Source of the DNA: Oscillospiraceae bacterium
Lineage (GTDB): Bacteria > Bacillota > Clostridia > Oscillospirales > CAG-272
Length of the DNA: 64,000 nt
Direction: 5' to 3'
NCBI GenBank assembly: GCA_015063545.1
Contig: SVTX01000001.1
Location: 1,842 to 65,841 of the forward strand
How positions within the stretch are numbered: position 1 is the first letter of the stretch; each line of letters starts with the position of its first letter. Of the stretch, positions 14,926-37,600 are shown in pieces. A program made the position numbers and the translations under genes. Under the pieces are notes generated by a model, which made no database searches, was not told where the DNA came from, and was given only the letters and a program-made list of their open reading frames with translations.

Positions 14926-14952
14926 TCTGATTGGATTATAGGAGAAGTAATT

Positions 14953-18864: not shown

Positions 18865-18871
18865 AAAAATT

Positions 18872-18900: not shown

Positions 18901-18925
18901 TGAATAATAAAACTATGAGGTTATT

Positions 18926-20866
18926 ATGTTACCCAAGCTTTTTTGCGAGATAGATAAGACAGCAGATATACAGATACGTAAATTTGCAGAAGACACGGAT
19001 GTCTCTGCCCTTGGAGCATTTGAATACGGCACGGTAGTTGATTTCGAGCTTGCCGTGTCACGCTGTATGGGCATGACTACGCCTGTTTTGAGAATATGCC
19101 GTGACGGTCAGCCATCAAAGGATATACCGATGAATTTCAAGGGCTCGGACAATGTCAGCGATATGTACTGTCTTTGTATTGATACAAAGGAGTTGTGCGG
19201 CGAGGCGGAGTGCGGTTTGTTTTATTATGAGTTCGTGCTTGTGCGAGGAGCGAACACCGTATATACCGATGCGTATAACAACGTAGATTTCAGACTTTCG
19301 GAAAAGGAAGGCGTGAAATTCCGACTTCTTGTATATGAAAAGGGATTTAAAACTCCGGACAGCTTCAAGGGGGTCATGTATCAGATATTTCCCGACAGAT
19401 TTTTCAGAGGTGAGAGCGAAGAAGCCAAATCAGTTCCCGTCCGAGAGGATGCGATATTGAATAAGGATTGGGAAAACGGAATTCCTCAATTTGCGCTCAA
19501 GGTGGGCGATCCTTTGAAGAACAATATGTTTTTTGGCGGAACGCTTTGGGGTATTGCGGAAAAACTTGACTATCTTTGCGAGCTTGGAGTAAGTATTATT
19601 TATCTGTGCCCTATATTTGAGGCATATTCAAACCACAAATACGACACGGGAAATTATCTCAAGGTCGACGATATGTTCGGCGGAGACGACGCATTGAAAA
19701 ACCTTATAGATAAAGCCAAAGAAAAAGGCATCTCGATTGTTTTAGACGGTGTTTTTAACCATACAGGCGATGACAGTATTTACTTTAATAAATACCGCCG
19801 ATACGGTGATGGCGGAGCATATAATGATCCCGACTCTCCGTACGTTAAGTGGTATAATTTTAAGAATCATCCCGATGAATACGAATCATGGTGGGGAATA
19901 GAGATACTGCCGAGACTTGATCATTCAAATGATAATTGCCGAAAGTTTTTCACGGGAGAAGGCGGGGTAATTCAAAAATACATAGACATGGGCATCGGGG
20001 GCTGGAGACTTGACGTTGCTGATGAACTGTGTGATGAATTTTTGGACGAACTGAGAGACAGAGCAAAATCCGCATCAAACGGCGAGGCTGTAATAATCGG
20101 CGAGGTTTGGGAAAATGCTGCGGAAAAATCCGCTTACGGAAAAAGAAGAAGATATTTTCAAGGCAGACAGCTTGACAGCGTTATGAATTATCCGCTTAGA
20201 AGCGCGATAATTGATTTTTGCGTTTTCGGTGACGCGGAAATACTCTATAACACTCTCACCGAAATATATTCATCTTATCCCGTACATGTATCCAATAAGC
20301 TCATGAACATTATAGGAACGCATGATACGGAGCGCATTTTGACGGTTCTTGGAAGAGACATGGGGGATGAGGACAGAAGCATGGCGGAGCTGTCGGTAGC
20401 AAAGCTTTCCCCAAAGCAACGTAAAAAGGGAGTTGAGCTTTTGAAGATCGCAGCGGGACTTCAGTACACGGTATACGGCGTTCCATCACTCTATTACGGC
20501 GATGAGATAGGCCTTGAGGGATATAGGGATCCTTTCTGTCGCATGCCGTTCCCATGGCATGAGCTTGATGACGCGCAACGCGCGGAGATACTTGATTTTT
20601 ATAAAGCTCTCGGTAGAATCAGACGCACAGAACCTGCGTTAGATGACGGATTGTTTTGTATCATAGGCAGAAGTGAGGATTTTATTTGCTTTTTCAGAGA
20701 AAAGCAAGATTCTAAGCTTTTGATTGCTGCAAACCGCGGAGGGGAAAAATCAATAGATATCCCGGACGGATGTTATTACATTGATCTGATTTCAAACAAA
20801 GAATATACGGGCAACGTTACAGTGCCCGGTGACACTATTGCCATATTTAAGGAAGTACAACAATGA
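18926..20866 (+). CDS. GH13 alpha-glycosidase (neopullulanase/cyclomaltodextrinase-like)
   Basis: GH13 regions DGVFNHTG, GGWRLDVADE, GEVWE and GTHDTER. 646 aa. Confidence 0.85.
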   Translation: MLPKLFCEIDKTADIQIRKFAEDTDVSALGAFEYGTVVDFELAVSRCMGMTTPVLRICRDGQPSKDIPMNFKGSDNVSDMYCLCIDTKELCGEAECGLFYYEFVLVRGANTVYTDAYNNVDFRLSEKEGVKFRLLVYEKGFKTPDSFKGVMYQIFPDRFFRGESEEAKSVPVREDAILNKDWENGIPQFALKVGDPLKNNMFFGGTLWGIAEKLDYLCELGVSIIYLCPIFEAYSNHKYDTGNYLKVDDMFGGDDALKNLIDKAKEKGISIVLDGVFNHTGDDSIYFNKYRRYGDGGAYNDPDSPYVKWYNFKNHPDEYESWWGIEILPRLDHSNDNCRKFFTGEGGVIQKYIDMGIGGWRLDVADELCDEFLDELRDRAKSASNGEAVIIGEVWENAAEKSAYGKRRRYFQGRQLDSVMNYPLRSAIIDFCVFGDAEILYNTLTEIYSSYPVHVSNKLMNIIGTHDTERILTVLGRDMGDEDRSMAELSVAKLSPKQRKKGVELLKIAAGLQYTVYGVPSLYYGDEIGLEGYRDPFCRMPFPWHELDDAQRAEILDFYKALGRIRRTEPALDDGLFCIIGRSEDFICFFREKQDSKLLIAANRGGEKSIDIPDGCYYIDLISNKEYTGNVTVPGDTIAIFKEVQQ

Positions 20867-22095
20867 AATATGCAAACTCTTTAAAATACATAGAGAATTT
20901 CAGACCTTCCGGGACACAGAATACTGTTTCCGTGCGGCGCATATCAGAGCTTTGCAGCTCTCTCGGGAATATTAATCGCGGTGTGAGATTCATTCACGTG
21001 CCGGGAGGTGCGTCGGGACACGGATGTGCCGTGCTTATGGAAAATGTTTTCAAATGCGCGGGATACAAAACAGGCAGGATAGTCTCGCCATGCGGCAGAG
21101 ACTCGCGCACTTCTGTCTTTATAAACGGAGTGATAGCTCAGATAGAAGACTACAATAAATGTGTTGCCGAAATAAAAAACAAGGTTGGAAAGCACTACGA
21201 CACCGAATATTTAAAGGAAGAAATAATATTTGTACTGTCACTGCTTTTGTGCAGACTTAGCGGATGTGAATTCATTATTCTTGAAGGTACAGAAAAATTT
21301 GACCGTGTTTGCGCACCGTATGAGCTTGTTATCATCCCTGCAATTTACGATTCGGAAAACGCTATGGACAAAGTTGTGCGCCTGTGTGATTCTATTCGGG
21401 CGGGCGCGCGTGAGGTCGTCAGCGGAAATCAGAAGAGTGATGTGTATAATTATATTTCCAATGTTTGCGCGCCCTCGGGACAAAGACTGTTCATTCCCGT
21501 CAAGGCTCAGTTCTGTATAACGGAACAGAGCTCAAGAAGACTGGTGTTTAACTATAACGGCAGGGAAGGCTTCACCCTCAAAACCCCGTCTCTCATTATG
21601 AGAGATTGTGCCATGACTGTTATAGAGGCAATTATGGCGATCCGCAGAGAGGGAATAAGAATTCCCGTATCTGCTATAATTGAAGGCATGGCTGAGGCGG
21701 GAAGCGCAAACTCATTTGAGATAATTTCTTATACTCCCACTATCATAGTGGATAATTCATCAAACGCCGATGAAACGAAGCTTTTGTACAAGACATACTG
21801 TGAAGTGTTTGGAGATGATAGGGAATTTTCTATTTGCATTTTTGCAGAAAGTGAAGAGGAGATATCTTTGTTGCTTGGAGATATTCCACTCAATAAAATT
21901 AAAAGCATACTTGTGTGCGGTCATAATTATGATATGTGTTCATATAAAAATGTCCCGCTTTTGGTGTGCAGAACGCATAAGGATGCGGCGAGGATCATAT
22001 CAAATGTCGAAGACCAGGATAGCACGTGGGTGTGTTTCGGCGGAGATTTCGCTCAGCGAATAAAAGAGGAAATAGCAAAACTTATAAACTTTTAA
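20863..22095 (+). CDS. FolC/Mur-ligase-like protein with degenerate active-site motifs (probable pseudoenzyme)
   Basis: FolC-like N-terminus (ANSLKYIENF). The P-loop position reads HVPGGASGHG instead of GTNGKGS, and DGAHN is replaced by DNSSN. ATGA overlap with the GH13 stop. Confidence 0.6.
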   Translation: MKYANSLKYIENFRPSGTQNTVSVRRISELCSSLGNINRGVRFIHVPGGASGHGCAVLMENVFKCAGYKTGRIVSPCGRDSRTSVFINGVIAQIEDYNKCVAEIKNKVGKHYDTEYLKEEIIFVLSLLLCRLSGCEFIILEGTEKFDRVCAPYELVIIPAIYDSENAMDKVVRLCDSIRAGAREVVSGNQKSDVYNYISNVCAPSGQRLFIPVKAQFCITEQSSRRLVFNYNGREGFTLKTPSLIMRDCAMTVIEAIMAIRREGIRIPVSAIIEGMAEAGSANSFEIISYTPTIIVDNSSNADETKLLYKTYCEVFGDDREFSICIFAESEEEISLLLGDIPLNKIKSILVCGHNYDMCSYKNVPLLVCRTHKDAARIISNVEDQDSTWVCFGGDFAQRIKEEIAKLINF

Positions 22096-22123
22096 TTGAT
22101 ATAACAACAAAAGCTTGATAAAA

Positions 22124-22156
22124 AGGGCTTTTTCAGACAAAAGTCCTTTTTTATTT
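22124..22156 (+). terminator. rho-independent terminator at the end of the glycogen operon
   Basis: agggctttt tcagac aaaagtcct followed by tttttattt. Confidence 0.6.
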
Positions 22157-22266
22157 ATGCGTTGAATGCGTGAACGAGACATGTTCTTCATATAAATCGT
22201 TTTTTTGCATATAATGTTTTATGAAAGCAAAGAATAGTATCATCAAAGTTTTGGAGGTGTAGGATC

Positions 22267-23586
22267 GTGACAAAGCCACAGATCATAAAATGCAGTGCAA
22301 GAGAAATTTTGGATTCAAGAGGCAATCCCACAGTGGAAGCGACAGTCATGCTTTCGGATGGAAGCATAGGAGTGGCATCCGTGCCGTCGGGGGCTTCCAC
22401 GGGTATATATGAGGCGGTAGAAAAACGCGACGGAGACAAGTCAAGATATAACGGTAAAGGAGTGCTTTCCGCGGTAAACAGCATATGCAGAACCATATCG
22501 CCCGCCCTCATAGGTGTTTATGCGAGCGAACAAAATGAGGTCGATAGAATAATGTGCGAAATAGACGGCACAGAGAATAAGCAAAATCTTGGTGCAAATG
22601 CTATTTTGGCGGTATCTCTGGCAAATGCGCGTGCATGCGCTAACAGCTATCATATGCCGTTATTTCGCTTTATAGGTGGGATGGAGGCAAAAACGCTTCC
22701 AATACCCATGATGAATATTCTGAACGGCGGTGCGCATGCAAGCAACAATATAGAGATACAGGAATTTATGATAGTTCCTACGGCTGCGCCGTCTTTTTCT
22801 GATGCCATAAGAATGGGTAGTGAGATATATCATGAGCTTGGAGATATTCTCAAGAGGGAAAATCACTCTACGGCGGTAGGAGACGAGGGCGGATTTGCGC
22901 CCAATCTTGAATCTGACGAACAGGCAATAGAGTATATTTGCCGGGCGATAGACGCATGTGGCTATTCAGACAGCGTAAAGATAGCCTTGGATGCCGCATC
23001 ATCCGAATGGTATAGCGAGAAGGAAGACCGTTATAAGTTAAAAAAACGTGGAATGGAATATGACAGAGACGGATTGATAAACTTTTGGGAAAAGCTTTGC
23101 GACTCATATCCCATTATCTCAATAGAAGATGGATTGGATCAGCGTGATTTCTTCGGTTGGAGCCGTCTTACCGAAAAGATAGGGAACAGATGTATGCTGG
23201 TCGGAGACGATTTATTCGTTACAAATGTAAAGCGGCTCAAAGAGGGAATAGGTACCGGCGCCGCAAATGCCGTTCTTGTAAAGCCCAATCAAGTGGGAAC
23301 CTTGAGTGAAGTAATAGATGTGACCTCGACGGCATACTCCAAAGAATATCTTACCATCATGTCTCACCGTTCCGGTGAGACGGAGGATACGACAATAGCC
23401 GATCTTGCGGTGGGGCTTGGCGCGAAGTTTATAAAATCAGGAGCGCCCTGCCGAAGCGAGAGAGTGGCCAAGTACAACCGGCTTATAAGGATAGAGGCAT
23501 CTTTGGGTAAATCGGCAAAATACGGATTTAATTACGGAAGCATAAAACCCACCGTGAGAACGTTTTGCGGAGAGTGTATGGAATAA
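22267..23586 (+). CDS. eno: enolase
   Basis: GTG start with GGAGGTG RBS. AREILDSRGNPTVEA, SHRSGETED and KPNQVGT motifs. Confidence 0.93.
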   Translation: MTKPQIIKCSAREILDSRGNPTVEATVMLSDGSIGVASVPSGASTGIYEAVEKRDGDKSRYNGKGVLSAVNSICRTISPALIGVYASEQNEVDRIMCEIDGTENKQNLGANAILAVSLANARACANSYHMPLFRFIGGMEAKTLPIPMMNILNGGAHASNNIEIQEFMIVPTAAPSFSDAIRMGSEIYHELGDILKRENHSTAVGDEGGFAPNLESDEQAIEYICRAIDACGYSDSVKIALDAASSEWYSEKEDRYKLKKRGMEYDRDGLINFWEKLCDSYPIISIEDGLDQRDFFGWSRLTEKIGNRCMLVGDDLFVTNVKRLKEGIGTGAANAVLVKPNQVGTLSEVIDVTSTAYSKEYLTIMSHRSGETEDTTIADLAVGLGAKFIKSGAPCRSERVAKYNRLIRIEASLGKSAKYGFNYGSIKPTVRTFCGECME

Positions 23587-23800: not shown

Positions 23801-26800
23801 ATGAAAAAAATCCTCTCTGCATCGATAGTGGTGATTATGATAATTGCACTGGCTATCGGCGCTACATTTGCAGCAAATGCCGTAGAGGCAGACTATTCCT
23901 TGACGGGAATGGGCGCGGCTGTTACAAAGCCTATTACGGTAAACGGTACGGACACGGGAGTTACACACACACAGATATCCGTGCCCGCAAATTCCAAGTA
24001 TAACCCTTATACGTCAGACAGCGTTGTTAACGTAATAGAGATATCCCCATCTGACACGAATGCAACGATGGCGGTTCTCAACTGCGGTAATTACAACTGG
24101 AGCAAGACCACTATGGGTACTGCTGCCAATAAATATAACGCAACGCACGACGGCACGGTAATTGCTGCGGTAAACGGTGACCCGTGGCTCGTACACCATA
24201 CGGACTACGACGGAGACGGTGTTGCATCTACAGGTCCTTCCGTAAAGCACGGCTCGGTATCCAGAGGAATAGTTATTGTTGATGGCGAGCTTTACAACAC
24301 AAGACAATCCGCGGCAGAAAACTACCTTCCTGCCAAAACAAGCGGAAGTGGCGCAGAGTACGGCGGAACTCCGTCGGGAGGAATGGTCTTTGCTGTAAAA
24401 GCAGACGGAAGCTACATGATAGGTACTCCCAGCCTTAATGTTTCTATGAAAAACGCAACCACAGGTGTAACGCTTACAGCGCCCACCGGAATTAACAGAC
24501 TTCCCGCACCTAACGCTATAATGATCTACAATCACAGAGTTGGTACAGAGTCTATGGCATACACCGACGCGTATGAGATATATCTTAAAACAGACGATAG
24601 TGCGTTCGGAATAGGCAAGACTGTTTCCGGTACTGTTACGGCAATATTTGAGAGCAATAGCGAAGAACCCCGTCCCGCTATTGATGCAAATACCATTATT
24701 ATTTCCGCGAGAGGTAATAAGATAGAAGGTCTTCAGGGACAGTTCACCATCGGTGATCAGATAGATTTCGGAGTACTTGTAAGAAACGATTCTTACTTGT
24801 CCGCTCAGAAAAGCGAATGGAAGAACGTTACTCAGGCGATCGGCGGATTCTTCTCTCAAGTAGATAAGGGTAACATCACAGGTGAGAACCGAGACAGTGC
24901 ATATCCTTGTCCTGTAGTTGGACTTAAACAGGATGGCACAGTTGTTGTTATGAGCGTTACCTCGCAGGCAGATGGTCTGTATAAGGGTACGACGATGAGG
25001 AACGTTGCCTATATATGTCAGGAACTCGGCATGTATACCGCGCTTATGTTTGACGGCGGCGGATCCACGCAGATGATAACCTATGATGATGGCGCATACG
25101 TAAGACGCGCATCCAGCGCTGACGGAGCAAACAGTGTCCGTGGAGTTATAAACGGACTGGCAGTAGTGTATAAAGGCGCGAATATTGACAATGTTATAAA
25201 CAATGAATCGTCGGCTGCCGGTTTCTACGGTGAAATAACCGGAGCTACGACGGATACGTTTGCGGCAGTAGTAAATAACGTAAACGGAGTTGGTCCCGAC
25301 GGAACAGTGAACACTAACTTTGCTCAGACACTTGTTTCAAATACTTCTTTTGTTGCAAGTGCTCCCATGCCGATAGAAATTAAGGATACTACCGTAAGTA
25401 TCAACGGATGGTTTATATCCAACGGCGGTCAGAACGACGAAATTAAATTCTCCGTAGACGGCGGACAAACATGGGTAGGTACATGCACCAACATAAATTG
25501 GATGGACGGTACATCAGACCATGTAGCGGCTGCCAATGCACACGGAGTAGAGAATGCATCTGCAACCCACGCGGTGTTTACCGGAGCTACTGCTGATCTT
25601 TCTCTGTTTGAGGGAAGAACGGTAGATGTTACGTTTGGAAGAACCGCCCCTTGGGGTGATACGGTGGCATTTGCGACCATAACCGGCGTCAAGGTTCCCG
25701 GTGTCGCAAAGCCGGATGTGGTAATTACAGCGGAGCCCACAGGCTCTTACCGTTATTATGTAACCGTAAGCAGTATCAACGGTATAGCCACAAGCCTTAC
25801 GGGCTACAGAGACGCGACAAGCGGAGTGACCGAGAGACGTGTTCCTGCAATCACGACGGGCATTTCTGTAGATGAAAATAACTGTATTTTGATATCCGGT
25901 ATGGCACAGGTCAACGGAGGTCAGTATGCCTATTACTGGTCGATTGACGGTAATAATTGGTATGAATTTATGGGAGGAGAATACGGCTCTGCTACGTCTG
26001 ACTTTGCCGCGGAGGCAAGAGAAAGCATTGCTAAGGTAACCAGCACGGGCATAGAAGCAAACGGTGCATTTACCAACCTCAAGGTTGATCTTACATCTTA
26101 TGCGGGGGAAACCGTTGACATATATTTTGCGGTTACGTCAAAGAGTGCAAATACAAGTCCTTGTCACTTCTTGACAATCGAGGATGTAGCAGTTCCCGCA
26201 CCTCATACTTGCACTCCCGGAGCTGACGCAACTTGTACCACAGACCAGACCTGCACAGAGTGCGGAGAAATTATAACCCCCGCGCTCGGACACGATGAGA
26301 TAACTCACGAGGCAAAGGCGGCAACCTGTACAGAGGATGGCTGTAATGCATACGTAAGTTGCTCAAGATGTGATTACACTACTTATGAGGCGATACCCGC
26401 AACGGGCCACACCGAAGTAATCGATGCGGCAGTAGCTGCAACATGTACAGAAACAGGTCTTACAGAAGGTAAGCACTGTTCCGTATGTGAGAAGGTTCTC
26501 GTAGCTCAGACAATAGTCGATGCTCTTGGACATACAGCTGGTAATACAGTTGTAGAAAATAATGTAGAGCCTGATTGTACAAATACAGGTTCTTACGATA
26601 CAGTAGTTTACTGTACATTATGTAACGTTGAACTCTCTAGAGAAACAACAACAGTTGATGCACTCGGTCATACCGAAGTGATCGACGCAGCAGTAGCTCC
26701 CACATGTACAGAGACAGGTCTTACAGAAGGTAAGCACTGCTCCGTATGTAATGAGATTATCGTAGCACAGGAAACAGTAGCAGCTCTCGGTCATACCGAA

Positions 26801-27520
26801 GTTGTTGACGCAGCTAAGGCGCCCACATGTACAGAGACAGGTCTTACAGAAGGAAAGCACTGTTCAGTATGTGAAGAAGTTATCGTAGCGCAGAACGTAG
26901 TTGACGCTCTTGGTCATACAGAGGAAGAGATCCCTGCGGTAGAGGCTACTTGTACAGAGGTGGGATGGAACACATACGTAATGTGCACAGTATGTGATTA
27001 CACTACATATGAAGAGATTCCCGCGCTTGGACATGACACGGAAGTTATTGCGGCAATAGATGCAACGTGTACTCAAAGCGGAACTACCGCCGGCGAAAAA
27101 TGTAAGGTTTGCGGCGACGTTATTGTTCCTACAACAGAGATTTCTGCGACAGGACACACTGAAGAGAAGATACCTGCGATCGCAGCTACATGTACCGATA
27201 GTGGAGGTACAGAAGGGAAGAAGTGTTCTGTTTGTGGCGAAATAACAGTAGTTCAAACGGAGATCGCTCCTCTTGGACACAAATTTGACAGTGATACAGA
27301 TGAGGAATGTAATACTTGTGGATATAAGCGCGAGATAACCACAGAAGCTCCTACGGACGGTTCTGCAGAGACTCCCACATCCAATAATCAAAATGGCTCT
27401 GATAACGCACAGTCAACAGACGAAGGCAATGGCGGTTGCGGATCATCGGTCGGAATTGGACTTATTGGCCTTACAACTGCTATGGCAGCAGGATATGTAT
27501 TCTCTAAGAAGAGAAGATAA
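23801..27520 (+). CDS. 1239-aa surface protein: signal peptide, phosphodiester-glycosidase (NAGPA/DUF2233)-like domain, two beta-sandwich-like repeats, about 10 His/Cys3 repeats, and a GCGS-TM-KKRR tail
   Basis: AAGGAG RBS. Signal [35 protein letters not shown] and [10 protein letters not shown] are reminiscent of NAGPA-type domains. Repeats are of the form [42 protein letters not shown]-terminus is [29 protein letters not shown]. Confidence 0.8.
26200..27310 (+). repeat. in-frame tandem coding repeats (about 10 units of 117-135 bp) encoding His/Cys3 modules
   Basis: Units start at each GH(T/D). Three units (about 26400-26520, 26660-26780, 26780-26900) are near-identical at the DNA level. 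Confidence 0.8.
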
Positions 27521-27539
27521 AAAAACAGAAAAAAGTTTT

Positions 27540-27567
27540 AGCGGTGTGTTCTTTTGAACACACCGCT
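27540..27567 (+). terminator. hairpin after the 1239-aa gene
   Basis: agcggtgtgttc tttt gaacacaccgct followed by ttg. Confidence 0.5.
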
Positions 27568-27573
27568 TTGTAC

Positions 27574-27612
27574 AAAAAAGCGAGGACACCGAAGTGTCCT
27601 CGCAATTTTTTA
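27574..27612. terminator. bidirectional terminator between the convergent Cys-repeat genes
   Basis: aaaaaa gcgaggacac cgaa gtgtcctcgc aatttttta. Confidence 0.65.
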
Positions 27613-27640
27613 TTGTTTTATAAAGTTGACTAAGTTAAAA

Positions 27641-30600
27641 TCAGTCTTCCTTCTTCTTAAAGCATACTGCTCCTGCAAGTGTGATGCTTCCGAGAATTGC
27701 AAGTGCGCTGAATCCAACAACGGATCCACAACCCTTCTTTTCTTCCTTCTTGCCGTCGTCTGCAGGCTTGTCGTTTCCGGAATTGCCGGAATTATTGCTG
27801 TTGTTATTGTTGCTTTCTTCCTTAGTTTCGCCACATACTGTGCACTTGTTGTTTTCAAACTTATGACCTGTTGCGGGAGCAACCTCGCCGTTACATACTG
27901 TACATACCTGTGCTGTTGTACATGTTGCCTCTGCACCGGGTGTGTGCTCAAGAGCTGCTACAAGCTCTGCGTTACATACTGTACATGTCTGAGCTGCTGC
28001 ACATGTTGCCTCTTCACCGGGTGTATGGCCGAGAGCTGCTACGAGTTCTGCGTTACATACTGTACATGTCTGAGCTGTTGTACATGTTGCCTCTATACCT
28101 GCTGTGTGACCTGTTGCTGCTGCGAGTTCTGCGTTACATACTGTACATGTCTGTGCAGTTGTGCATGTTGCCGCTGCACCGGGCTTGTGACCGTAAGATT
28201 CCACAAGAACGGTCTCACATACTGTACATACCTGAGCTGTTGTACATGTTGGCGCTTCACCGGGTGTGTGACCCGTTGCGCCTGCAATCTCTGCATTACA
28301 TACTGTACATACCTGTGCTGTTGTGCATGTTGCCTCTTCGCCGGGTGTGTGACCCTTTGCTGCTTCTATAACAATTTCACATACTGTACATGTCTGAGCT
28401 GTTGTACATGTCGCTTCTGCACCGGGGGTATGAGGAAGCTTTTCAATAGCTTCTGTTGCAATTGTTGTTCCACAGTCGTTACATGTCTGTACCTTTCTAC
28501 CTGCAGCAGAACATGTGGGATCAACTGTCTGTGTCCATGTCGTTTCAGCGTGGTCACAACCGTATCCGCAAGCACATACCGCGCCGCTTGTGAGGTCGTG
28601 AGCTACCTTTTCTGTTGTTGCATCACAGTCTTCGCACTTCTGCCAGTGGCCTTCATCATCGTAATTGTATGCGACGCTCCAGTCGTGAGGAAGAATCTCT
28701 GTTACTGTCTGCTCCTTAACTACTTCGTTACATCTAGCACACTTAGAACCGTCCGAAAGACCTGTTTCGGTACATGTTGCAGCCTTGCCGGGAATAACTA
28801 TTTCGTCGTGTCCAAGCGCGTCAATTACTGTCTGCTCCTTAACTACTTCGTTACATACGGAGCAAGTGCTTCCATCGGAAAGACCTGTTTCGGTACATGT
28901 TGCGGGCTTTCCTGCAACGGATACCTCCGTGTGTCCCTTAGCCGCAACAATTACCTTGCCACATACTGTACATACCTGTGCTGTTGTACATGTTGCCTCT
29001 GCACCGGGTGTACAATCCTGTACGGGAATAACCTCGGGATTTTTGATGATCTTTTCACAGTCGAGACACTTAATGCCCTCCGTAGAACCGATACCCTTGC
29101 AAGAAGCGGGAACTTCGGGAATAGTTTCTGTGTTTTCATGTGCGCAACCGGGGGCAACGTTCTCTACATAGGCTGCAGCGAAATCTTCAGCTGCGATATC
29201 GTCCTTGAAGAATCCTGCGTAGCAGAAATCAAAGTGGTTCTGACCGTCGTTTACGAGAATGAGGTTATTGAATACGAGCTGAACACTGTTGATTCTTCCG
29301 TTCCAGTCGGGAGTGAAATCGGGATCATCCATATAGAAGATGAAGAGCTTGTAATGATGTCCGTCGTCACCAATCCATGACGCTGTCATAGATTCATTGC
29401 TATAAAAGTGTTCATCGTCAGCTCCGAGGATGCTTCCTGCACAGTAGTACATGCTGAGTGTTTCTTCTTCGTAGCATTCATTTTCACCGGGAGCAAATAC
29501 GCAGCTGCAATAGTCTCTGAGGAGGACTGCTACGTACGGGAAGTCCGCTGCCTCGTAAGAAATTGCGTTTTTGGGTAATATTGTTATACTTACTGCATTG
29601 GTTGTTTTAGGATAAATCGAGAACGTGTTATCACTGTTCAAGTTGTAATCAAGATTGAGAGTGGAGGGGAGCTTGCCGGCTTTTTTGTAATCATCGTTTG
29701 CATTAGCACCGTCGAAGTAAAGTGCGGGCTGATCGTCTTCAATTGTGGAGGAATCGATCATTTCACCGATAGGCTCAGGAGTACCTGTAGCCTCACCTGC
29801 ATCTGTACCTGTGGGTGTTTCGCCATTGAATTCAATGATGGTGCAACGAGTTGTGCAGTCACTCTTGGAACCGAGAACGGAGAAGCCGATGTATGCCATA
29901 CCGTCAGCGAAACGGTACTTGAAGTACTGGTCAACAACCGCCTGAGTTACAGGAACTCCGCAAATATTCATTCCGTACAGGTTGGTGTTTGCATCATAAG
30001 TAATCTCCATAGTCAAAATGAAATCACCGTTTTCATCCTGCTCGGGAGGATTGTTTGCAAGATCGTTACCGAAGTCGATAAGATTGGACACCATGGGGGC
30101 AGATGCGCTACCAGGCTGAAGAGCTCCGGGAGTGGAGGTGTTGTAGTAAGATTGGTCAGAGATAAATGACTGGCTCTGTGTCCAGGAGATCTTACCTGTA
30201 CGGCTTACTGTGCCACGCAAAAGTCCAAATACACCCTGGCCGAATGTTCCTGATGCATTTCCCTGAGCTACAACGGGGCTGTCCCAAACAGAGAAGCTGA
30301 GCCACCAGTCTCCACCGTAAGCAAAATCGTCCATTCTGACTTTCATGGTTATGCCTTCCTGGAGGTTATGCTTTTCCTTGGACATTATGTTAAAGCGCTG
30401 TCCTGCGGGGGCCTTGAATTCTGCTGAAGCAAAAAATCCGTCCTCGTTGTATCCGTATCCGGGAACGATAGCGTTTTCAGGGACTATGGAATAGTCGAGA
30501 TTTCCGTCCTCATCCCTGTACATTCCTGCGTCGGAATAAACTTTCCAGTCGCCGCCGTTTTCTGTTGATGTGCTTATTACTTCATCGTCAGCAGCTGCGG

Positions 30601-30673
30601 GAGTAACTGCGATGGCAATAAGTGCTGAAAGGATCATTACAGCAACAAGTGCTGTACAAAGAAATCTTTTCAT
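27641..30673 (-). CDS. 1010-aa surface protein: signal peptide, lectin-like domain, unknown domain, mixed His/Cys repeats including 7 tandem 29-aa units, and a GCGS-TM-KKKED tail
   Basis: Start moved to ATG 30673 (AAGGAG RBS; MKRFLCTALVAVMILSALIAIAVTPAAA), because the predicted -10 lies at 30733-30738. MAYIGFSVLGS is legume-lectin-like. C-terminus is KKGCGSVVGFSALAILGSITLAGAVCFKKKED. Confidence 0.8.
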   Translation of the reverse strand: MKRFLCTALVAVMILSALIAIAVTPAAADDEVISTSTENGGDWKVYSDAGMYRDEDGNLDYSIVPENAIVPGYGYNEDGFFASAEFKAPAGQRFNIMSKEKHNLQEGITMKVRMDDFAYGGDWWLSFSVWDSPVVAQGNASGTFGQGVFGLLRGTVSRTGKISWTQSQSFISDQSYYNTSTPGALQPGSASAPMVSNLIDFGNDLANNPPEQDENGDFILTMEITYDANTNLYGMNICGVPVTQAVVDQYFKYRFADGMAYIGFSVLGSKSDCTTRCTIIEFNGETPTGTDAGEATGTPEPIGEMIDSSTIEDDQPALYFDGANANDDYKKAGKLPSTLNLDYNLNSDNTFSIYPKTTNAVSITILPKNAISYEAADFPYVAVLLRDYCSCVFAPGENECYEEETLSMYYCAGSILGADDEHFYSNESMTASWIGDDGHHYKLFIFYMDDPDFTPDWNGRINSVQLVFNNLILVNDGQNHFDFCYAGFFKDDIAAEDFAAAYVENVAPGCAHENTETIPEVPASCKGIGSTEGIKCLDCEKIIKNPEVIPVQDCTPGAEATCTTAQVCTVCGKVIVAAKGHTEVSVAGKPATCTETGLSDGSTCSVCNEVVKEQTVIDALGHDEIVIPGKAATCTETGLSDGSKCARCNEVVKEQTVTEILPHDWSVAYNYDDEGHWQKCEDCDATTEKVAHDLTSGAVCACGYGCDHAETTWTQTVDPTCSAAGRKVQTCNDCGTTIATEAIEKLPHTPGAEATCTTAQTCTVCEIVIEAAKGHTPGEEATCTTAQVCTVCNAEIAGATGHTPGEAPTCTTAQVCTVCETVLVESYGHKPGAAATCTTAQTCTVCNAELAAATGHTAGIEATCTTAQTCTVCNAELVAALGHTPGEEATCAAAQTCTVCNAELVAALEHTPGAEATCTTAQVCTVCNGEVAPATGHKFENNKCTVCGETKEESNNNNSNNSGNSGNDKPADDGKKEEKKGCGSVVGFSALAILGSITLAGAVCFKKKED
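27863..28471 (-). repeat. seven tandem 87-bp in-frame repeats encoding GHTPG-x-EATCTTAQ-x-CTVC-x8
   Basis: Protein reads HTPGAEATCTTAQTCTVCEIVIEAAKG / HTPGEEATCTTAQVCTVCNAEIAGATG / ... seven times. The periodicity is obvious in the DNA (gttacatactgtacat recurs). Confidence 0.85.
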
Positions 30674-30732
30674 GTTTTTCTCCTTATAAATAGTTTTTTT
30701 GGCGCGTTGTGCGTTCGGCGCCAATCATGTAT

Positions 30733-30831: not shown

Positions 30832-33800
30832 TTATACTTCCAAAGCTTCTCCCAAGGGGAGTGAAAGTATGTATGTTTTTTGGGGCTTTTTTCCGAATAT
30901 CTTTTCTATAGCCAATGAGTATTCGTTAAGCTGTGATTTGTGCATGCATCGAAGTCTTTTGCGCAGAAGCTCGGGATCTTGTTTTTCTTCGGGATATATT
31001 CTGTCGGTCTTATAATCGCAAAGATATATCGAGCCGTCGCTGTTTTCGATAAGCAGGTCGATAGAACCCTGGACGTAAACGGTGGTATCTTTTATGATAT
31101 CGGATAGTTGCTTGTTTTGCGTAAATTCCGATGCAGGCTTGGAAATTCCGAATTTGAACTCTCTGCGCACGTTCTGAGCGTTGAGAATGATTCCGAATAT
31201 ATTGCTTTTCAAAAAGCCCTCAAGCTGTCTTTTGTCAAGAATATCTGCCGTTGAGTGTGAAATAAAGCCCCGATCAAGCAATCTTGAAATTTCGCTGTCT
31301 ACTCCGTTTTCTTTCATGTTTTTGTAATCGCAGTACTGCAGGAAAAGATGCATTGCTACGCCTTTGTCTGCCGCGGTTATCTTTTTCGTTATATGTTCAA
31401 AATACGTAATATCTGTGGGCCGCGAGCGCATGAGCTCTATTCTGTTTTTCAAATTCTTCGACAACTCATCATCCAATGTATCAAAGGCCGTGTTGCTGTC
31501 GGTTTCCTGTGAAAAAAACGCGCGTGTGAAGCCTGCAAGGCTTTCATCGAGCATAGATGGAGATGCCTTTGATGCCGCTATGTTTGAAGGAATGGCGGAA
31601 AGTATCATTTCATCAGGGCTTCCTGAAGGCGGGGTGAGAATCAGCTCGGAGTAATTTGAGTGCGCGCTGTTTTCGGGACAGGAACCGCTGACGTCCTCAC
31701 TGTAAATGGGCTGAGCGAGAGGTGTATTGTTGAATACGGAATGAAGTGTTACGGTATAAGTTGACTTGTCGTGTTCTGTGAAAAGTCCACCCACGATCCA
31801 ACCAAGAAGGGAAGGCTGAGATGCAGTGGAGACGTCGGAAATACCGTACAGACGGAATTTATCAAAGAAAGTTTCAAATTTAGATTTTCCACCGACAGTA
31901 CCGAAAATATACAGCCTTTCTTCCGCGCGCGTCATGGCGACGTACAGAATACGCATCTCCTCCTCTTTAGCCTTGCTTGAAAGATCTGCTGCCAAGACTC
32001 TGTGAATGATGCAGTCGTTTTTCAGAATGTTTATGTTGTCCTCAACTCTTGAGGGCATGTGCATTCCCACGCAAAATTCTTTGTCATAAAGAAGAGATTT
32101 TTGATATTCCTTTACGTTGAATTCTCCGCCAAAGCCATAAAGAATGCAAGTGTTATACTGAAGGCCCTTGGAGTAATGTACGGTTATTATGTTCACCGCG
32201 TTTTGAATAGGCTGTACCTCTCCGCTGACATTCGAATGTTCTGCAATATCGGCAAAATATGAGTTGAAGCCTGACAACCCGTTCCAAAAGCTCTTGGTGT
32301 ATTTGCATGCGTAATCGTACATGAATCTGAAGGCATCGCCTTCTGTGAAGCTGCCGAAAACATCGTCTGCAGTAAGAAACTTGAGAAATTTATCTACTGA
32401 AAGCTTTACTGACATTGATCTCAGATAGCACAGTTTTTTGACGATTTCACGGCATTTTGCGCTCAGCAGAGTATCAAGCGGATCACCTATACCGCTTTCT
32501 CCGTATTGACAAATCGCGTCATAAAGCGACAGACTTTTATCGGCATGTTTCCTAACGGTAACCGTCTCTCCGATTGAAAATCTCAAATGTTCGGGCAGAA
32601 GTTCGCACGACAGGACACTGCACAAGGGAATGTCATTTCTGGGATTATCGATTATAGTGCACAGCTCTCTCAAAAGCACCATTTCGCGGCTTTGCAGAAG
32701 CTCGCTTTTTGATGCTACAAGGTATTCTATGCCAAGTGCGCGTAACGCGGAAGTTATTTCGGGTATGGCATCCTTTTTTCTTACAAGAATGGCAATATCC
32801 GAGGGGGCTATGGGCGCGCCGTTGCTTTTTTTGCCGTTTTGAATAAGCTCGGCTATGGTGTTGGCGGCAACTACTGCTTCTTCGCATAACCCGCTGCCGT
32901 TTTGTGAATCGTCCGCTTTAAGATAATCTTTGGCGGTATCCGTGACAAAAGCATGGGGGAGATTTTGCTTTGCGGTCCATGGGTCTCCCTTGGCGAAAAT
33001 GTTTACGGACACCTTGGGACAGGTATATTCCTCGTGACATTTTTTGGTAAATACCAGATCATCCTCGTCCTTATATCCTATGCTGTTTTTGCAGGACTTG
33101 AACATGGGGGAGCATATCGTATTTGAAAATTTTATGACATTTTCATCACTTCGGAAATTGTTGGACATGAATATGGTAAAGCCTTGCGGATTTTTCTCAT
33201 ATTCCTTTCCGTATGGAGTGTATGTGCTTCTGTAATTGGAGAAGAATGTTGGCTCTGCATCACGGAATCCGTAAATGCTCTGCTTAATATCTCCCACCAT
33301 AAATCTGTTGTTTTTACCGATAAGCTCAAATATCTTGTCCTGTATCTCGTTTACGTCCTGATATTCGTCAATATATATTTCATCGTATGAATCAGAAATA
33401 TTTTTCGCTGCCTCGGTAGGAGTTCCGTCCGAGTTTTGCAAAAGCGCCATCATGTATCTTGGCATATCCGAAAAATCATATATGCCGAGATCTTTTTTTG
33501 TTGACATCAGCTTTTTGTCAAAATCCGACAGCAAAGTATAAAGTACAGACGTGATCTGCGCGGTCTTTATGTAGGAGTCGGATATATCCTTGGGTGAAAT
33601 ACCAAAATATTTGTCCGTGATGTTTTTGATCTGCTTTTTGATATCGTCACGCGCTGCGCGTAGCATTTCGCTTGTGTGGCTTTTTTGATGTGCCTTGAGA
33701 GTTCCGATTTTTTGAGAAGGAAATCGGGACAACGCCTCTCCGAGAGCATCATATCCATTTTGTACGGTCTTCTCTATGGAGAGAAGCTCTGATATGTCTG

Positions 33801-34590
33801 CCTCAAATGTAGGAAGATATTTTTCGCGGAGCAGGTCATCCTCGTTCATAACGTCTCTATGGTGTTCAACAAACGAAACTGCACCGGCAATGGTCTTCTT
33901 TAGCTCGTTTATCACGAAAAGCCCTTCCTTGGTCTCCAAAAAATCTTTCTCTGAATCCGCGCTCAGACGTTGCGAAAAATCCGAGAGCAGATCGACGCCT
34001 TTTGGGGTGGTTATGAGCTTTCCGTGGAGCCTCAGAAGATAAGGAATAGTATCCGATGAGTCCTTTACCGTGGTAGTAAGCAGGGCAAAAAGCTCGGTAA
34101 GAGGGGAATTATCATCTATATCGGAGAGCTTGCCACTGCGGCATATTCCGTATTTTTCGTACAGAGAGTCCATGACCTCTGCCATTATATTATGGGAAAG
34201 CGCGGTTACTTCCGCTTCGTCAGCAATACGCATGGAAACGGGGAGACCGAGCTTTTCAAAATTTTCGCGAACGGGGCGTGACAAAAATGAATCTATTGTA
34301 CAAATGTCTGCGCCGCCGAGCTTTAAAAGTTGATTCTGAAGGTGAGTATTGTCGGGATTTTGCGCTATTGCGTCCATGAGTGCCGAGGATATTCTGCTTT
34401 TAAGCTCGCCTGCCGCGGCGCGTGTAAAGGTGACTACCAAAATGCGGGATATATCTGCATTTTTTTCGAGAATGTTTTTTATTATTCTTTGTGTCAGGGT
34501 GTAAGTTTTACCTGAACCTGCCGCTGCGCTGACAAGCACATTGTTTCCGCTTATTTCAAGCGCCTGCTGTTGTGCGGGTGTAAATGCCAT
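30832..34590 (-). CDS. addA: ATP-dependent helicase/nuclease subunit A
   Basis: UvrD-like N-terminus (VSAAAGSGKTYTL) and a C-terminal RecB-type nuclease (GSIDLL...CDYKTD). 1252 aa. Confidence 0.9.
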   Translation of the reverse strand: MAFTPAQQQALEISGNNVLVSAAAGSGKTYTLTQRIIKNILEKNADISRILVVTFTRAAAGELKSRISSALMDAIAQNPDNTHLQNQLLKLGGADICTIDSFLSRPVRENFEKLGLPVSMRIADEAEVTALSHNIMAEVMDSLYEKYGICRSGKLSDIDDNSPLTELFALLTTTVKDSSDTIPYLLRLHGKLITTPKGVDLLSDFSQRLSADSEKDFLETKEGLFVINELKKTIAGAVSFVEHHRDVMNEDDLLREKYLPTFEADISELLSIEKTVQNGYDALGEALSRFPSQKIGTLKAHQKSHTSEMLRAARDDIKKQIKNITDKYFGISPKDISDSYIKTAQITSVLYTLLSDFDKKLMSTKKDLGIYDFSDMPRYMMALLQNSDGTPTEAAKNISDSYDEIYIDEYQDVNEIQDKIFELIGKNNRFMVGDIKQSIYGFRDAEPTFFSNYRSTYTPYGKEYEKNPQGFTIFMSNNFRSDENVIKFSNTICSPMFKSCKNSIGYKDEDDLVFTKKCHEEYTCPKVSVNIFAKGDPWTAKQNLPHAFVTDTAKDYLKADDSQNGSGLCEEAVVAANTIAELIQNGKKSNGAPIAPSDIAILVRKKDAIPEITSALRALGIEYLVASKSELLQSREMVLLRELCTIIDNPRNDIPLCSVLSCELLPEHLRFSIGETVTVRKHADKSLSLYDAICQYGESGIGDPLDTLLSAKCREIVKKLCYLRSMSVKLSVDKFLKFLTADDVFGSFTEGDAFRFMYDYACKYTKSFWNGLSGFNSYFADIAEHSNVSGEVQPIQNAVNIITVHYSKGLQYNTCILYGFGGEFNVKEYQKSLLYDKEFCVGMHMPSRVEDNINILKNDCIIHRVLAADLSSKAKEEEMRILYVAMTRAEERLYIFGTVGGKSKFETFFDKFRLYGISDVSTASQPSLLGWIVGGLFTEHDKSTYTVTLHSVFNNTPLAQPIYSEDVSGSCPENSAHSNYSELILTPPSGSPDEMILSAIPSNIAASKASPSMLDESLAGFTRAFFSQETDSNTAFDTLDDELSKNLKNRIELMRSRPTDITYFEHITKKITAADKGVAMHLFLQYCDYKNMKENGVDSEISRLLDRGFISHSTADILDKRQLEGFLKSNIFGIILNAQNVRREFKFGISKPASEFTQNKQLSDIIKDTTVYVQGSIDLLIENSDGSIYLCDYKTDRIYPEEKQDPELLRKRLRCMHKSQLNEYSLAIEKIFGKKPQKTYILSLPLGEALEV

Positions 34591-34608
34591 TTTTGCAGTC
34601 TCCTTTCT

Positions 34609-37600
34609 TTAATATTTTGATTTGCACGCTACGGGACAAGATGAGCGCACGGGGCAAAATCTACAGCTTTCAGCCGAGGGGGAACGTCTGATGTTTCCTG
34701 AGAATATCTGTGTTCCCGTTTCTTTGACGGTGTTTATCAGAATATCCCTCATCTCATCCATTTCTTCCTTGGACAAAAGCTCCGGGCAGGGAGCGGAACT
34801 ATCTTTTTGAGCCGCTTTTTCTGCCGCAGTGCTTATAAAGCTGAAATCGAGATTTTTGTTTGTAGCCGTTAAAATATCCGGATGATCGTATATCATGCCG
34901 CTTCTTGCTATAGAAATATCCCCTTTGGTTTCAACAGCCGAAACGTAGAGAGAGGCGCAGGGAAGTATTTTTTTAGCTCCCACGTAGGCAGAAATATTCT
35001 TTTCATCGGATGCGGCAAACAGGTATGCAGGGAGCTGGAGGTCTGCTCCGGATATAACCTTTTCGGCATCAAACGACACAGCGCCTGTTTTATAGTCTAT
35101 TACTCGGATATACGTAACGCCGTCTTTTTCATACGTATCTATGCGGTCTGCGTTGCCGCCGAGATAAACCGTGGGGGCGCCCTGGATATCATCAAGAGAA
35201 ATTTCCAAGGATCTTAGACTGTCAGATCCGCGAGCGGATATCTTTTTTTCAAACGAGTGTATCCTGAATTCTGAATTTTCAAATTCTTCAAAAATGTTTT
35301 TTGCCATGAGAAAAGCCATGTTTCGAAGGTTTGAAAACGCATACATAAGCGCAGGAGTTCTTGGACACTGTATTGCGTCAATATAGCAATTTACCCATTT
35401 GTCCGTAGCCTCAAGGACTTGATCCGATGACAAATTGCCAAGCTGTCCGTTTGACGTTACGTTTTCCTCTAAAATTTTTTGGAGCACGTAGTGGATCAAC
35501 CTGCCTGATTCCGACAGACTCAGCTTGGCGTTTGTACGCTCTCGCAGATCCAATACACTATTGCTCCAGAAAAGCATGGGACAGCGAACAAAACTTTGAA
35601 TTTTGGATTTTGACAGATAAAGCTCATTTCCAAAAACCGAACGTACAACGTCAGGTGAAATGGTTTCACAGTGTTCATTGTCACATCCGAAAAATTCTGC
35701 CTTGTGCGCCTCAAGCAACGCGGCATCCTGCGCATTTTTCTGTGATTGAGCAAGTTTATGTACTGCTTTAGCGTTGAATTCTTCTACTGTGATATCAAAC
35801 AGAGACAAAAGCCTTCTCCACGGAGCAGACGGAGCTTTTGAACCTCCGCATATGCCTGAGGAATATGTTGTTACTATAAGCTTTTCGGAAGGCTTTGAAA
35901 GCGCGCGGTAGACGTAGAAAAGCTCATCAGACATAAGTCTTTGGCGACGCGCCTTGAATGTGAGCCCAAGATCTTCAAGGCTTTCCTTATCGTTATCGCA
36001 CAAAAGACCTCCGTCGCCGGGCACGGAGGGGAAAACTCCTTCGCACATTTCCATTACTATGGCTGTTTTTATGCCTTCAACTCTCAGCGTAGCGGCAGAG
36101 CCTACAGTTACGAATTCTCTGGTTGAGGGAACGGAAGAGATATCGGTATGAGACAACATTATCTCTATGGCGGTTATAAAATCATCGGTGGAAAGCTTGG
36201 TGTCCTTCATCACCGTATAAATGTCCGAAAGCGAGGACAGCAGATGGTCGTATACTCTTAGTATCTCGCCCGCTTGTTTTATGTTGCCGAGTGATAGCTC
36301 AAGCTCCGCAAGATCCGAGAGACGCTCTGGAAGCTGATGATGCTCCATGTAAGAAAGAAGCGCGCCGATAAGCTCTGCGGTGTTTTGTCCCGCTGCAGAG
36401 AATTTTACTCTTAATTCATTCAGTGGTGTTATAAGCTGAGCGCGAACCCTGTTTGCTGCCGAAAGAATTTTTTTGCTTCGCTCATTTGTGTCTGTCACAT
36501 ATCCCGACGGGTTCATGTTCCATACGGGGGAGAGAAATGCTTTTCCCTGAATATCCCAAGTAAGACAGTATTCCTCAAAAAGGTCCGCATCCTCGTTTTC
36601 TATTCCGCATAAGCCCGTTTTTAAAAGGGTCAGAACATCGCTCAGGCGGTAGTTGCGGGATATGCATCTCAAAGACGCAAGAATAAATCTTGCGGCAGGA
36701 GTGGCTGTAAGTTGCGCCTTTTCGGATATGAAATAAGGGATATTGTACTTTGAAAAGATCGCGTCGATAACTCCCGAGCGTTCCTCGGGATGACGAAGTA
36801 TAACGGCTATCTGAGAATATTTTGTGCCGTTTTTGTGAGCTTGAAGTATTTTAAGCGCGGCGCACTCCGTTTCCTCATATTCATTAGAGCAACTGACAAG
36901 CTCTATATCGCCGGGCATTTTATCAGATGAACAGTTGAGAGTTTGCTTGCTTGCCGAAAAATCCCACAGATGCTTTTCGAGCAATTTAAGCTGAGGGCTG
37001 TGTGTGCGTGTGTTTCCGTTAAGCGTAATATCGTCAAATTCTTTGCCGCTTTCTCTTGCGGCGCGAGTAAGACGTTTGACGGTATCCGATACGCTTTCGG
37101 TGTGAGGTGCCTTGAAGCCTCTGGCGGGAGAGCATACAGATATGCACATATTATCCGCCTGTTTCATGATCTGCGAAAGTATCCTGTGCTGTATTCCCGT
37201 AAAGTCGGTAAATGAATCCACAAATACAGTCGAGCTTTCAAAAAAATTATGTTTTGAGAGTGTGTCGCACAGCCTCTCAAGCTTGTCCTCAAACATTACT
37301 GCTTGCTTGCCGAGCAATGCTTCAAGACTGTCATTATACGCCTGTGTAAGCGCGCTTATATCCGACAGCTTATTTTTTAAGTCGGGGCGCATTTCCAAAT
37401 CAAGTATGCACTCAATTTTGTCGCTATGTATTGAATTTGCCTTTAATTCGTCTGCTGTCTGAAGCATAAGGTCGGCAAATTCGGGACTTGGCGGTGTAGA
37501 TCCGTATTCCAAAAGAACAGGGGAGAGCTCTTTGATGCTTTTCCACATGATAAGGCTTCGCATGCCGGAGGATATCGGTGTGTATGCTCTGCCGCCGTAA

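Follow-up and report, generated by a model that had tools for sequence, protein, structure and literature searches.

An apparently new Cys-type C-terminal sorting signal of Clostridia and its linkage to an Lgt-like/CPBP gene pair

Introduction

What does a cysteine-containing tail do when it recurs at the extreme C-terminus of two convergent genes, and which enzymes, if any, act on it? The question is raised by genes A and B of a 64-kb window, the whole stretch of 64,000 nucleotides analysed here (contig SVTX01000001.1, positions 1,842 to 65,841, of an Oscillospiraceae bacterium), both of which encode secreted surface proteins ending in a Gly-Cys motif, a hydrophobic helix and a charged cluster. 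An earlier note on this DNA had taken the shared tail for a candidate C-terminal sorting signal, possibly of the Gly-Cys kind attributed to intramembrane proteases. Our analysis of the sequences indicates that it is a new, abundant and apparently undescribed Cys-type C-terminal sorting signal of Clostridia, and that in other genomes it is physically linked to an operon encoding an Lgt-like protein and a CPBP/Rce1-like protease.

Cys-type C-terminal signals have been described in Myxococcota, Synergistota, some Proteobacteria and Thermococcales, and the protease is the only step of their processing to have been identified and tested. The Haft preprint pairs four of them (MYXO-, JDVT-, Synerg- and CGP-CTERM) with CPBP enzymes; it mentions neither Firmicutes nor Clostridia, and neither Lgt nor diacylglyceryl transfer nor lipoboxes. 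MrtX has been shown experimentally to remove the MYXO-CTERM helix in a Cys-dependent manner (PMC11980579). The same work predicted that an 'Lgt-like acyl-transferase', left unidentified, modifies the Cys, and named Lgt as the leading candidate despite the missing lipobox and the inverted topology (PMC11980579). Our literature searches for the tail or for an Lgt/CPBP pairing returned only MYXO-CTERM papers and a paper on LnsAB of S. aureus.

Results

The tails of genes A and B

Gene A (23801..27520, plus strand; open reading frame (ORF) and translation) encodes a secreted NAGPA-domain surface protein of 1239 residues, laid out as a signal peptide, a NAGPA phosphodiester glycosidase domain (Pfam PF09992, 4.6e-18), Cys-rich repeats, a low-complexity linker and the G-C tail. 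Its 27-residue signal peptide (23801..23881, plus strand) was read by eye from the n-h-c layout and the A-x-A end, and a protein identical to the gene A product is recorded from a Ruminococcaceae metagenome-assembled genome (MAG). Gene B (27641..30673, minus strand) likewise encodes a secreted surface protein, of 1010 residues from the likely Met start at 30673, which lies ahead of the signal peptide MKRFLCTALVAVMILSALIAIAVTPAAA; the ORF itself spans 27641-30724 on the minus strand and opens at a TTG. The signal peptide is followed by a region without Pfam domains (no Pfam family was matched anywhere in gene B), by 27-residue Cys-rich repeats, by the low-complexity linker ESNNNNSNNSGNSGNDKPADDGKKEEKK and by the G-C tail. 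At 1239 and 1010 residues, the products hardly justify the description of the two genes as giant.

In gene A, the signature motif G-C-G occupies 27434..27442 (plus strand; codon of the invariant Cys, 27437-27439) and is followed in the translation by a hydrophobic helix of 20 residues (27443..27502) and by the basic cluster SKKRR with the stop codon (27503..27520). The C-terminus of gene B reads EKKGCGSVVGFSALAILGSITLAGAVCFKKKED, with G-C-G at 27725..27733 (minus strand; Cys codon 27728-27730), the hydrophobic helix SVVGFSALAILGSITLAGAVCF at 27659..27724 and the charged end KKKED at 27644..27658, again from the translation. In both tails, a linker leads into G-C-G-S, which is followed by some 20 hydrophobic residues and a cluster of Lys and Arg. 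The tails quoted in the earlier note and their coordinates, together with the low-complexity linker ahead of each and the tripartite layout of motif, helix and basic cluster at the extreme C-terminus, are all borne out by the DNA and its translations. Genes A and B are the only ORFs of the window with G-C tails.

The Cys-rich modules of the two proteins lie at 26200-27300 in gene A and 27800-29100 in gene B. In gene B, the 27-residue unit GHTPGxEATCTTAQxCTVCNAELxAA is repeated in tandem at least seven times, and no Pfam model covers these modules.

Conservation of the tail among gene A homologues

Homologues of gene A were collected through the N-terminal NAGPA domain (about 42% identity, 120 listed), and 107 of these 120 carry the same tail layout. 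The Cys is found in 107 of the 107 tail-bearing homologues and is preceded by Gly in all but one, at a position where the pattern used to extract the tails admitted five residues. After the Cys, position +1 is G, A, K or S, position +2 is S, A or G in 106 homologues, and positions +3 and +4 are V/A/S/T and V/I/L, respectively. The distance from the Cys to the end is 25-30 residues inclusive, and the proteins terminate in KK[KR](E)D, with K at -4 in 94/107 and D as the final residue in 83/107. The linker, by contrast with this conserved tail, is hypervariable, and the six residues ahead of G-C are unconserved. Five homologues (P0010, P0060, P0069, P0099 and P0118) have a plain helix anchor without G-C, and eight terminate in unrelated repeats instead of the tail. 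This pattern of conservation indicates that the shared tail is more than a relic of the paralogy of genes A and B. The cytoplasmic end is mostly KKK(E)D with an acidic terminal residue, KKRR of gene A being a minority form; it is Lys-rich, whereas the end cluster of other sorting signals is Arg-rich.

Abundance, modularity and range

A profile of the tail (41 positions, comprising 14 of linker and the tail itself) was searched against 1.84 billion representative proteins and recovered 1524 clusters (50% identity) at E<=1e-3. G-C is present in 149 of the 149 newly recovered proteins among the best 150 matches, although this count is partly circular because the profile rewards G-C; the gene A homologues provide the independent test. 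The matches in these 149 proteins end at the last residue or at most about three residues short of it. Proteins among the best 150 range from 43 to 2082 residues, and most of the longer ones have a signal-peptide-like N-terminus. The earlier note had envisaged a motif limited to two paralogues, with no co-occurring enzyme, as the outcome that would make the tail a plain anchor inherited by duplication; what emerged is a family of 1524 clusters and, in other genomes, a link to Lgt-like and CPBP genes. A word-indexed search with the same profile yielded only 11 short fragments.

When the last 60 residues were removed from 56 proteins of at least 300 residues and from genes A and B, single linkage sorted the remainders into 21 passenger groups. 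Most passengers have no Pfam domain; the others match Laminin_G_3, FIVAR, F5/8 type C, CBM9, GLUG and Big_2, which points to surface or carbohydrate-binding domains. The tail is a modular signal shared by at least 21 unrelated passenger families.

The range of the tail was examined with a back-translated DNA pattern (TGCGGNWSN-N{51,72}-AARAARMRNGARGAYTRR; one genome per species), which matched at least 119 loci, at least 53 of them true tails by a strict filter. Two further variants were found by eye: L118 has an S-C tail, and in L072 the tail is spaced. Among the matches listed, every true tail lies in a Clostridia MAG and none in a cultured strain; the MAGs derive from the guts of humans, ruminants and other animals and are labelled Clostridia, Eubacteriales, Oscillospiraceae, Ruminococcaceae, Candidatus Scatosoma, Lachnospiraceae, Clostridium sp. 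or Mageeibacillus. The other matches to the pattern, in other phyla or other Firmicutes, are frame-shifted or non-hydrophobic chance matches. On the matches listed, the tail is restricted to the Clostridia lineage. Even with this narrow pattern, several MAGs among the matches listed have 2-6 tails each, and with its many unrelated passengers, its several copies per genome and its tripartite layout, the tail has the generic features of a sorting signal set out in the Haft preprint. Tail genes also occur in tandem paralogue arrays, with four in L073 (1-8000), and five are found across L101 and L102 on one contig (JAFQPM010000021.1, 88-104 kb).

Linkage to an Lgt-like/CPBP gene pair

Clustering of the neighbours in 51 tail loci (8-kb blocks) brought out no recurrent enzyme, as expected if a single housekeeping enzyme serves dispersed substrates. 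The lead came from a Pfam scan of the multi-helix neighbours of tail genes. A tail gene of L086 (Clostridiales bacterium UBA7573), ending at 855, is followed on the same strand by an Lgt-family gene (1087-1863; PF01790, 2e-26) and an overlapping gene for an Rce1-like CPBP protein (about 1850-2641; PF02517, 1.1e-18). This CPBP protein belongs to a coherent homologue family of 260-290 residues and 35-45% identity. Six homologue neighbourhoods all have a PF01790 gene directly upstream, overlapping the CPBP gene by 4-26 nucleotides (nt), in wider settings that vary (pyr, his, ftsK, spoIIIA, peptidase S66). A metagenome scan with the CPBP family alignment added 80 loci. With our own hidden Markov models, every inspected locus that has a CPBP protein of at least 260 bits and enough sequence ahead of its gene shows an Lgt-like gene directly upstream, with the sole exception of L159.

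Among 21 independent loci of the pair that were not selected for a tail, seven (L124/L125, L128, L138, L139, L146, L162 and L165) have a G-C-tail protein encoded by the gene directly ahead of the Lgt-like one, on the same strand and at a distance of 39 to about 320 nt. Elsewhere in the 279 kb of these 21 loci there is no genuine tail, the sole other match to the pattern being an A-C sequence in L206 that we judged a false positive of the relaxed filter. Assuming that 2% of genes bear tails, the binomial chance of at least 7/21 at that position is about 1e-7. L086 is an eighth such locus, but it was ascertained through its tail and stands outside this count. The eight upstream proteins form four unrelated families ({L124, L128, L138, L139}, {L146, L165}, {L086} and {L162}); what they have in common is the tail, and none has a significant Pfam match, L086 showing only a sub-threshold match to CBM9. 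In these loci of other genomes, the tail is physically linked to the Lgt-like/CPBP operon.

Two variations on the pair deserve mention. A sister CPBP group scoring about 180-250 bits (L141, L145, L149, L150, L158, L160, L163, L167, L170, L175 and L186) has neither an Lgt-like gene nor G-C tails nearby. In L130 (8658-9842), L132, L133 and L136, the Lgt-like ORF is 386-394 residues long, about 120 residues longer at the C-terminus than the usual 255-290, and overlaps the CPBP frame by more than 100 nt.

The Lgt-like protein

The Lgt-like proteins score 57-87 bits against TIGR00544, whose cut-off is 118.9. A single sequence found no relative in the PDB, whereas a profile built from 18 of them gave an alignment with E. 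coli Lgt (5AZB) at 1e-15. The alignment shows that R143, R239 and the signature glycines are kept, GR.G and the R of EF.R..D.R being invariant. According to the structural study of E. coli Lgt, the enzyme cannot do without R143, binds its phosphatidylglycerol donor through E151 and is proposed to receive the lipobox peptide at HGGL; E151A/Q and H103A/N/Q/R/Y variants are inactive (PMC4728403). In place of the E. coli sequence GRLGNFINGELWG, each of the 18 Lgt-like sequences has GRxGC[LF]xxGCC[HY]G; set against the signature G142RLGNFINGELWG154, both N146 and E151 are replaced by C. At the H103 position of HGGL, 18/18 have Y, F or L. On its score and these residues, the protein forms a distinct Lgt subfamily. 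The retained residues fit a lipid-transfer enzyme, and the replaced ones are those tied to donor choice and acceptor binding, which fits a changed acceptor but does not prove it.

From the Cys onward, the gene A homologues read C-[GA]-[SA]-[VAST]-[VIL]; the lipobox consensus is [LVI][ASTVI][GAS]C (PMC12462473). In our own reading, the motif after the Cys could be a lipobox written in reverse, which would match the inverted position of the helix.

The CPBP/Rce1-like protease

The CPBP protein belongs to its family by every feature that we considered: the PF02517 match, the catalytic motifs and an Rce1-like fold. EExxxR, FxxxH and HxxxN/D are invariant in 55 sequences, and the invariant residues are E123, E124, R128, F157, H161 and H204. 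An AlphaFold model (predicted local distance difference test, pLDDT, 88.5; predicted template-modelling score, pTM, 0.86) has MmRce1 (4CAD) as its best match in the PDB, with a template-modelling (TM) score of 0.52 and a probability of 1.0; a sequence search of the PDB with the CPBP profile gave no match. The best or near-best NCBIfam matches are MrtJ, Mrt_core (NF040914), MrtS, MrtP and MrtC. Scores against the myxosortase equivalogs are only 20-33 bits, far below cut-offs of 75-250. Because the motifs are invariant, the model resembles MmRce1 and the myxosortase scores fall so far short, the linked CPBP is best regarded as a new subfamily and probably an active protease.

Relation to catalogued sorting signals

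The sorting-signal models of NCBIfam release 20 were scanned with the tails of genes A and B, then with 69 tails, and then with ten more. Apart from one marginal pass, in which the 31-residue tail of gene A scored 16.5 bits against LPXTG_anchor (cut-off 15.9) through its helix and basic tail only, no model reached its cut-off on the tails scanned. Among the Cys-type models, Synergist_CTERM matched 10 of the 69 tails, MYXO-CTERM and JDVT-CTERM three each, GC_trans_RRR two and CGP_CTERM one, all weakly; the ten further tails matched none of these five models at E<=1. Furthermore, the Arg-rich cluster of the Cys-type signals is not found in the tail, whose end is Lys-rich. We reject membership of a known CTERM family on these sub-threshold, partial matches, to which the marginal LPXTG_anchor score is the only exception; matches given in detail extend over the helix and basic end alone. 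Of the earlier proposal that the tail is of the Gly-Cys kind served by intramembrane proteases, the general idea is upheld by the invariant Cys and favoured by the link to CPBP in loci of other genomes, whereas assignment to MYXO-CTERM or GC_trans_RRR, with two or three weak matches among 69, does not stand.

One of the closest catalogued systems is Synerg-CTERM/MrtS of Synergistales (TIGR04564, NF040589), which matched the most tails of any Cys-type model (best E 2e-5). The two share a Gly/Ser-rich run, an invariant Cys, a helix that follows without spacer, a basic cluster and, if the linkage is meaningful, a CPBP/Rce1-like protease as cognate enzyme. They differ in that the present tail occurs in Clostridia rather than Synergistota and outside a type II secretion context, that its basic cluster is Lys-rich and mostly ends in Asp or Glu, that the linked CPBP scores 20-24 bits against an MrtS cut-off of 130, and that here the CPBP gene is translationally coupled to an Lgt-like gene.

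MYXO-CTERM, with MrtX, MrtC and MrtP (TIGR03901; GC_trans_RRR, TIGR03382), has a similar tripartite tail with a Cys after Gly, many substrates per genome and a CPBP-family protease, and its published model has the Cys lipidated before cleavage distal to it. It has features of its own, namely an Arg-rich end, the generic motif GCGC and a need for an outer membrane and type II secretion, and it differs in that no lipidating enzyme is encoded beside MrtX. JDVT-CTERM/MrtJ (NF033191, NF033192) resembles the present system in that the substrate gene adjoins the CPBP gene. Of four Lgt-coupled CPBPs scanned, three have MrtJ as their top NCBIfam match and the fourth has it in second place, at 27-33 bits where the cut-off is 75. 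The JDVT system, however, is dedicated to one substrate and belongs to Proteobacteria, whereas the clostridial substrates are mostly dispersed around the genome.

Lastly, the pathway of Lgt and LspA for N-terminal lipoproteins likewise pairs an Lgt-family enzyme with an intramembrane protease and acts on a Cys at the outer membrane face beside a helix that is removed. In the tail, the topology is inverted, the helix being C-terminal to the Cys, and the clostridial protease is a CPBP rather than LspA.

Discussion

Based on these data, we propose that the tail is a Cys-type signal that is lipidated by the Lgt-like protein and then relieved of its helix by the CPBP protease. The N-terminal signal peptide, as read from the sequence, would direct the protein through Sec, and the C-terminal helix with its Lys/Arg cluster would stop transfer, leaving an N-out/C-in protein with G-C at the outer membrane face. 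The Lgt-like transferase could then attach a lipid, most likely diacylglycerol, to the thiol of the Cys, after which the Rce1-like CPBP would remove the helix. The mature protein would be held on the cell surface by its C-terminal lipid, with the low-complexity linker serving as a stalk. Lipidation, cleavage and lipid anchoring are drawn from the linkage of the pair and from the published MYXO-CTERM/myxosortase model, whose predicted arrangement is matched by the clostridial cassette of tail protein, Lgt-like gene and CPBP gene. We consider this mechanism, taken as a whole, fairly probable. More tentatively, and as a possibility that we would not yet favour, the Lgt-like protein could be the lipidating enzyme of Cys-type signals at large, reading a mirror-image lipobox on an inverted helix and forming with CPBP a C-terminal counterpart of Lgt/LspA, with the products of genes A and B among its substrates.

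The adjacency of an Lgt-like gene, a CPBP gene and a substrate gene is a comparative-genomic clue that has been missing for the other Cys-type systems. It defines a three-gene cassette, and with the protease gene overlapping that of a distinct Lgt-family protein and with substrates directly upstream, the question of the Cys-lipidating enzyme becomes testable. Well over a thousand families of surface proteins in uncultured Clostridia of gut and rumen bear the signal. Several of the Pfam-matched passengers are carbohydrate-binding, and the signal goes unrecognised by the libraries searched here. A dedicated model of the tail would improve prediction of the surface proteome in these organisms. 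If the proposal is true, surface proteins anchored by a C-terminal diacylglycerol would exist in bacteria that probably lack an outer membrane.

Several observations weigh against this proposal. Since H103Y and E151A/Q inactivate the E. coli enzyme, the Lgt-like protein could catalyse a different reaction or no reaction at all, and its gene may not be an extra copy alongside a canonical Lgt. In L159 (1-1429), the 595 nt ahead of the gene for a CPBP of 309 bits contain no Lgt-like gene. As four of the seven adjacent tail proteins are of one family, the juxtapositions amount to about four independent events, not seven, and 14 of the 21 Lgt-CPBP loci have no adjoining tail gene. Conversely, the pair is present in only one of about 53 tail loci (8-kb blocks). 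A search of the whole window with our own Lgt-like and CPBP profiles found no match. The tail-bearing organisms are, moreover, probably monoderm and without an outer membrane, so the gain from exchanging a helix for a lipid anchor is not obvious. The scarce adjacency of pair and tails, for its part, fits a housekeeping enzyme with dispersed substrates.

With respect to the window, the earlier note had remarked that no sortase, exosortase, rhomboid or CPBP gene is recognisable in it, and this holds: neither these nor an Lgt-like gene were found among ORFs of at least 150 residues by Pfam scan or precomputed Pfam, and about 2.6 kb beyond one end of the window, on a known JGI contig, contains no Lgt-CPBP pair either. 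A pair (protein P0308) does occur on L213 (751-2296), from the metagenome sample of the window itself (JGI 3300031555). Its 13.6-kb twin L212 (pair at 9208-10753; GC content 43.8%) has a tetranucleotide correlation of 0.917 with the window, the top value of all foreign loci, where 5-kb pieces of the window compared with the rest or the whole of it give 0.89-0.92. This is suggestive only, but the pair may come from the organism of the window.

The main rival is a passive anchor, in which the helix and basic cluster hold the protein permanently, nothing is cleaved, and G-C serves for capping, S-acylation, a disulfide or wall contact. That a bare anchor can suffice is suggested by the five homologues with an ordinary helix and no G-C; no processing enzyme was found among the ORFs scanned in the window, and processing of the tail is itself putative. 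A near-invariant G-C at a fixed distance from the C-terminus, maintained in more than 1500 clusters and at least 21 passenger families, would nevertheless be unexpected of a passive anchor, and the adjacency to the operon in 7/21 loci, always through the neighbouring gene and in four passenger families, would go unexplained. We regard a plain anchor as unlikely.

Still less probable, in our estimation, is that the pair serves N-terminal lipoproteins, as a housekeeping Lgt with an LnsB-like helper of N-acylation, and that it happens to neighbour tail genes by coincidence, their tails being processed otherwise or left unprocessed. The CPBP-like LnsB of S. aureus does take part in lipoprotein N-acylation (PMC7387801), the operon lies in housekeeping surroundings (pyr, his, ftsK, spoIIIA), and the Lgt-like gene may be the only Lgt of these genomes. 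LnsB, however, is without the CPBP catalytic motifs, all of which are kept in the linked family; the Lgt-like protein falls below the equivalog cut-off and has H103, N146 and E151 replaced; chance adjacency was estimated at about 1e-7; and the signal peptides of the adjacent tail proteins, read by eye, end A-x-A-like and have no lipobox.

A variant sortase signal, that is, a degenerate Ruminococcus-type NPXTG/LPXTG tail cut by a sortase, can be set aside as very improbable: although Rumino_NPXTG and LPXTG_anchor matched 36 and 31 of the 69 tails, if weakly, and the motif-helix-basic layout is similar, with the helix and KKK(E)D end resembling the Ruminococcus NPXTG tail from the Gly onward, the Rumino_NPXTG matches span profile positions 5-30, past the NPXT residues, at 12-19 bits against a cut-off of 23.5, the tail has an invariant Cys and no (L/N)PXTG pentapeptide or P-x-T-G-like motif ahead of the helix (positions -6 to -2 are unconserved in the 107 homologues), and no link to a sortase was found, nor any sortase among the ORFs scanned in the window. 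The alignment of the tails and the sub-threshold scores lead us to reject it.

Equally hard to credit is processing by the SipW-polytopic fusion encoded at 49812-50948, which the earlier note had singled out as the only polytopic protein nearby that was left unexplained, and which is indeed the one such protease-like protein of the window: its gene is 22 kb distant, in a separate cluster where three SipW-type peptidases alternate with secreted proteins whose common signal-peptide ending, ...A(K/L)(Y/I)T, makes them the kind of substrate expected for SipW, no SipW-like gene recurs in more than one tail locus on clustering of neighbour ORFs, and none is found among the called, Pfam-annotated genes of the Lgt-CPBP loci. 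With likely substrates of its own, bearing N-terminal signals, the fusion is not a good candidate for the tail-processing enzyme, and we reject it.

Other features of the window

Genes A and B converge on a 120-nt spacer that carries two hairpin terminators, at 27540..27567 and 27580..27603, the second of which scores on both strands; the scan gave four terminator-like sites, against 0.3 expected from shuffled sequences. The tail genes are flanked on one side by a glycogen-metabolism block with enolase (10622-23586; GlgB, GlgC/D-like, glycogen synthase, phosphorylase and amylase) and on the other (30832-37887) by two long ORFs that, read by eye, resemble the AddA/AddB helicase-nuclease.

The SipW cluster (49190-60873) looks like a SipW/TasA-type system with several substrates. 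Its peptidases are of the archaeal type (TIGR02228, 80-107 bits against a cut-off of 51.85) and comprise the fusion at 49812-50948, in which about seven N-terminal membrane helices form the polytopic domain and for which no database record was found, and SipW-like signal peptidases at 54790-55647 and 56657-57229. The interleaved secreted proteins are unannotated, and ...G(Y/L)A(K/L)(Y/I)T is the ending common to their signal peptides. One protein of this cluster, of 981 residues (57928-60873), also contains the C-x(5-9)-C-x2-C Cys-rich modules of genes A and B.

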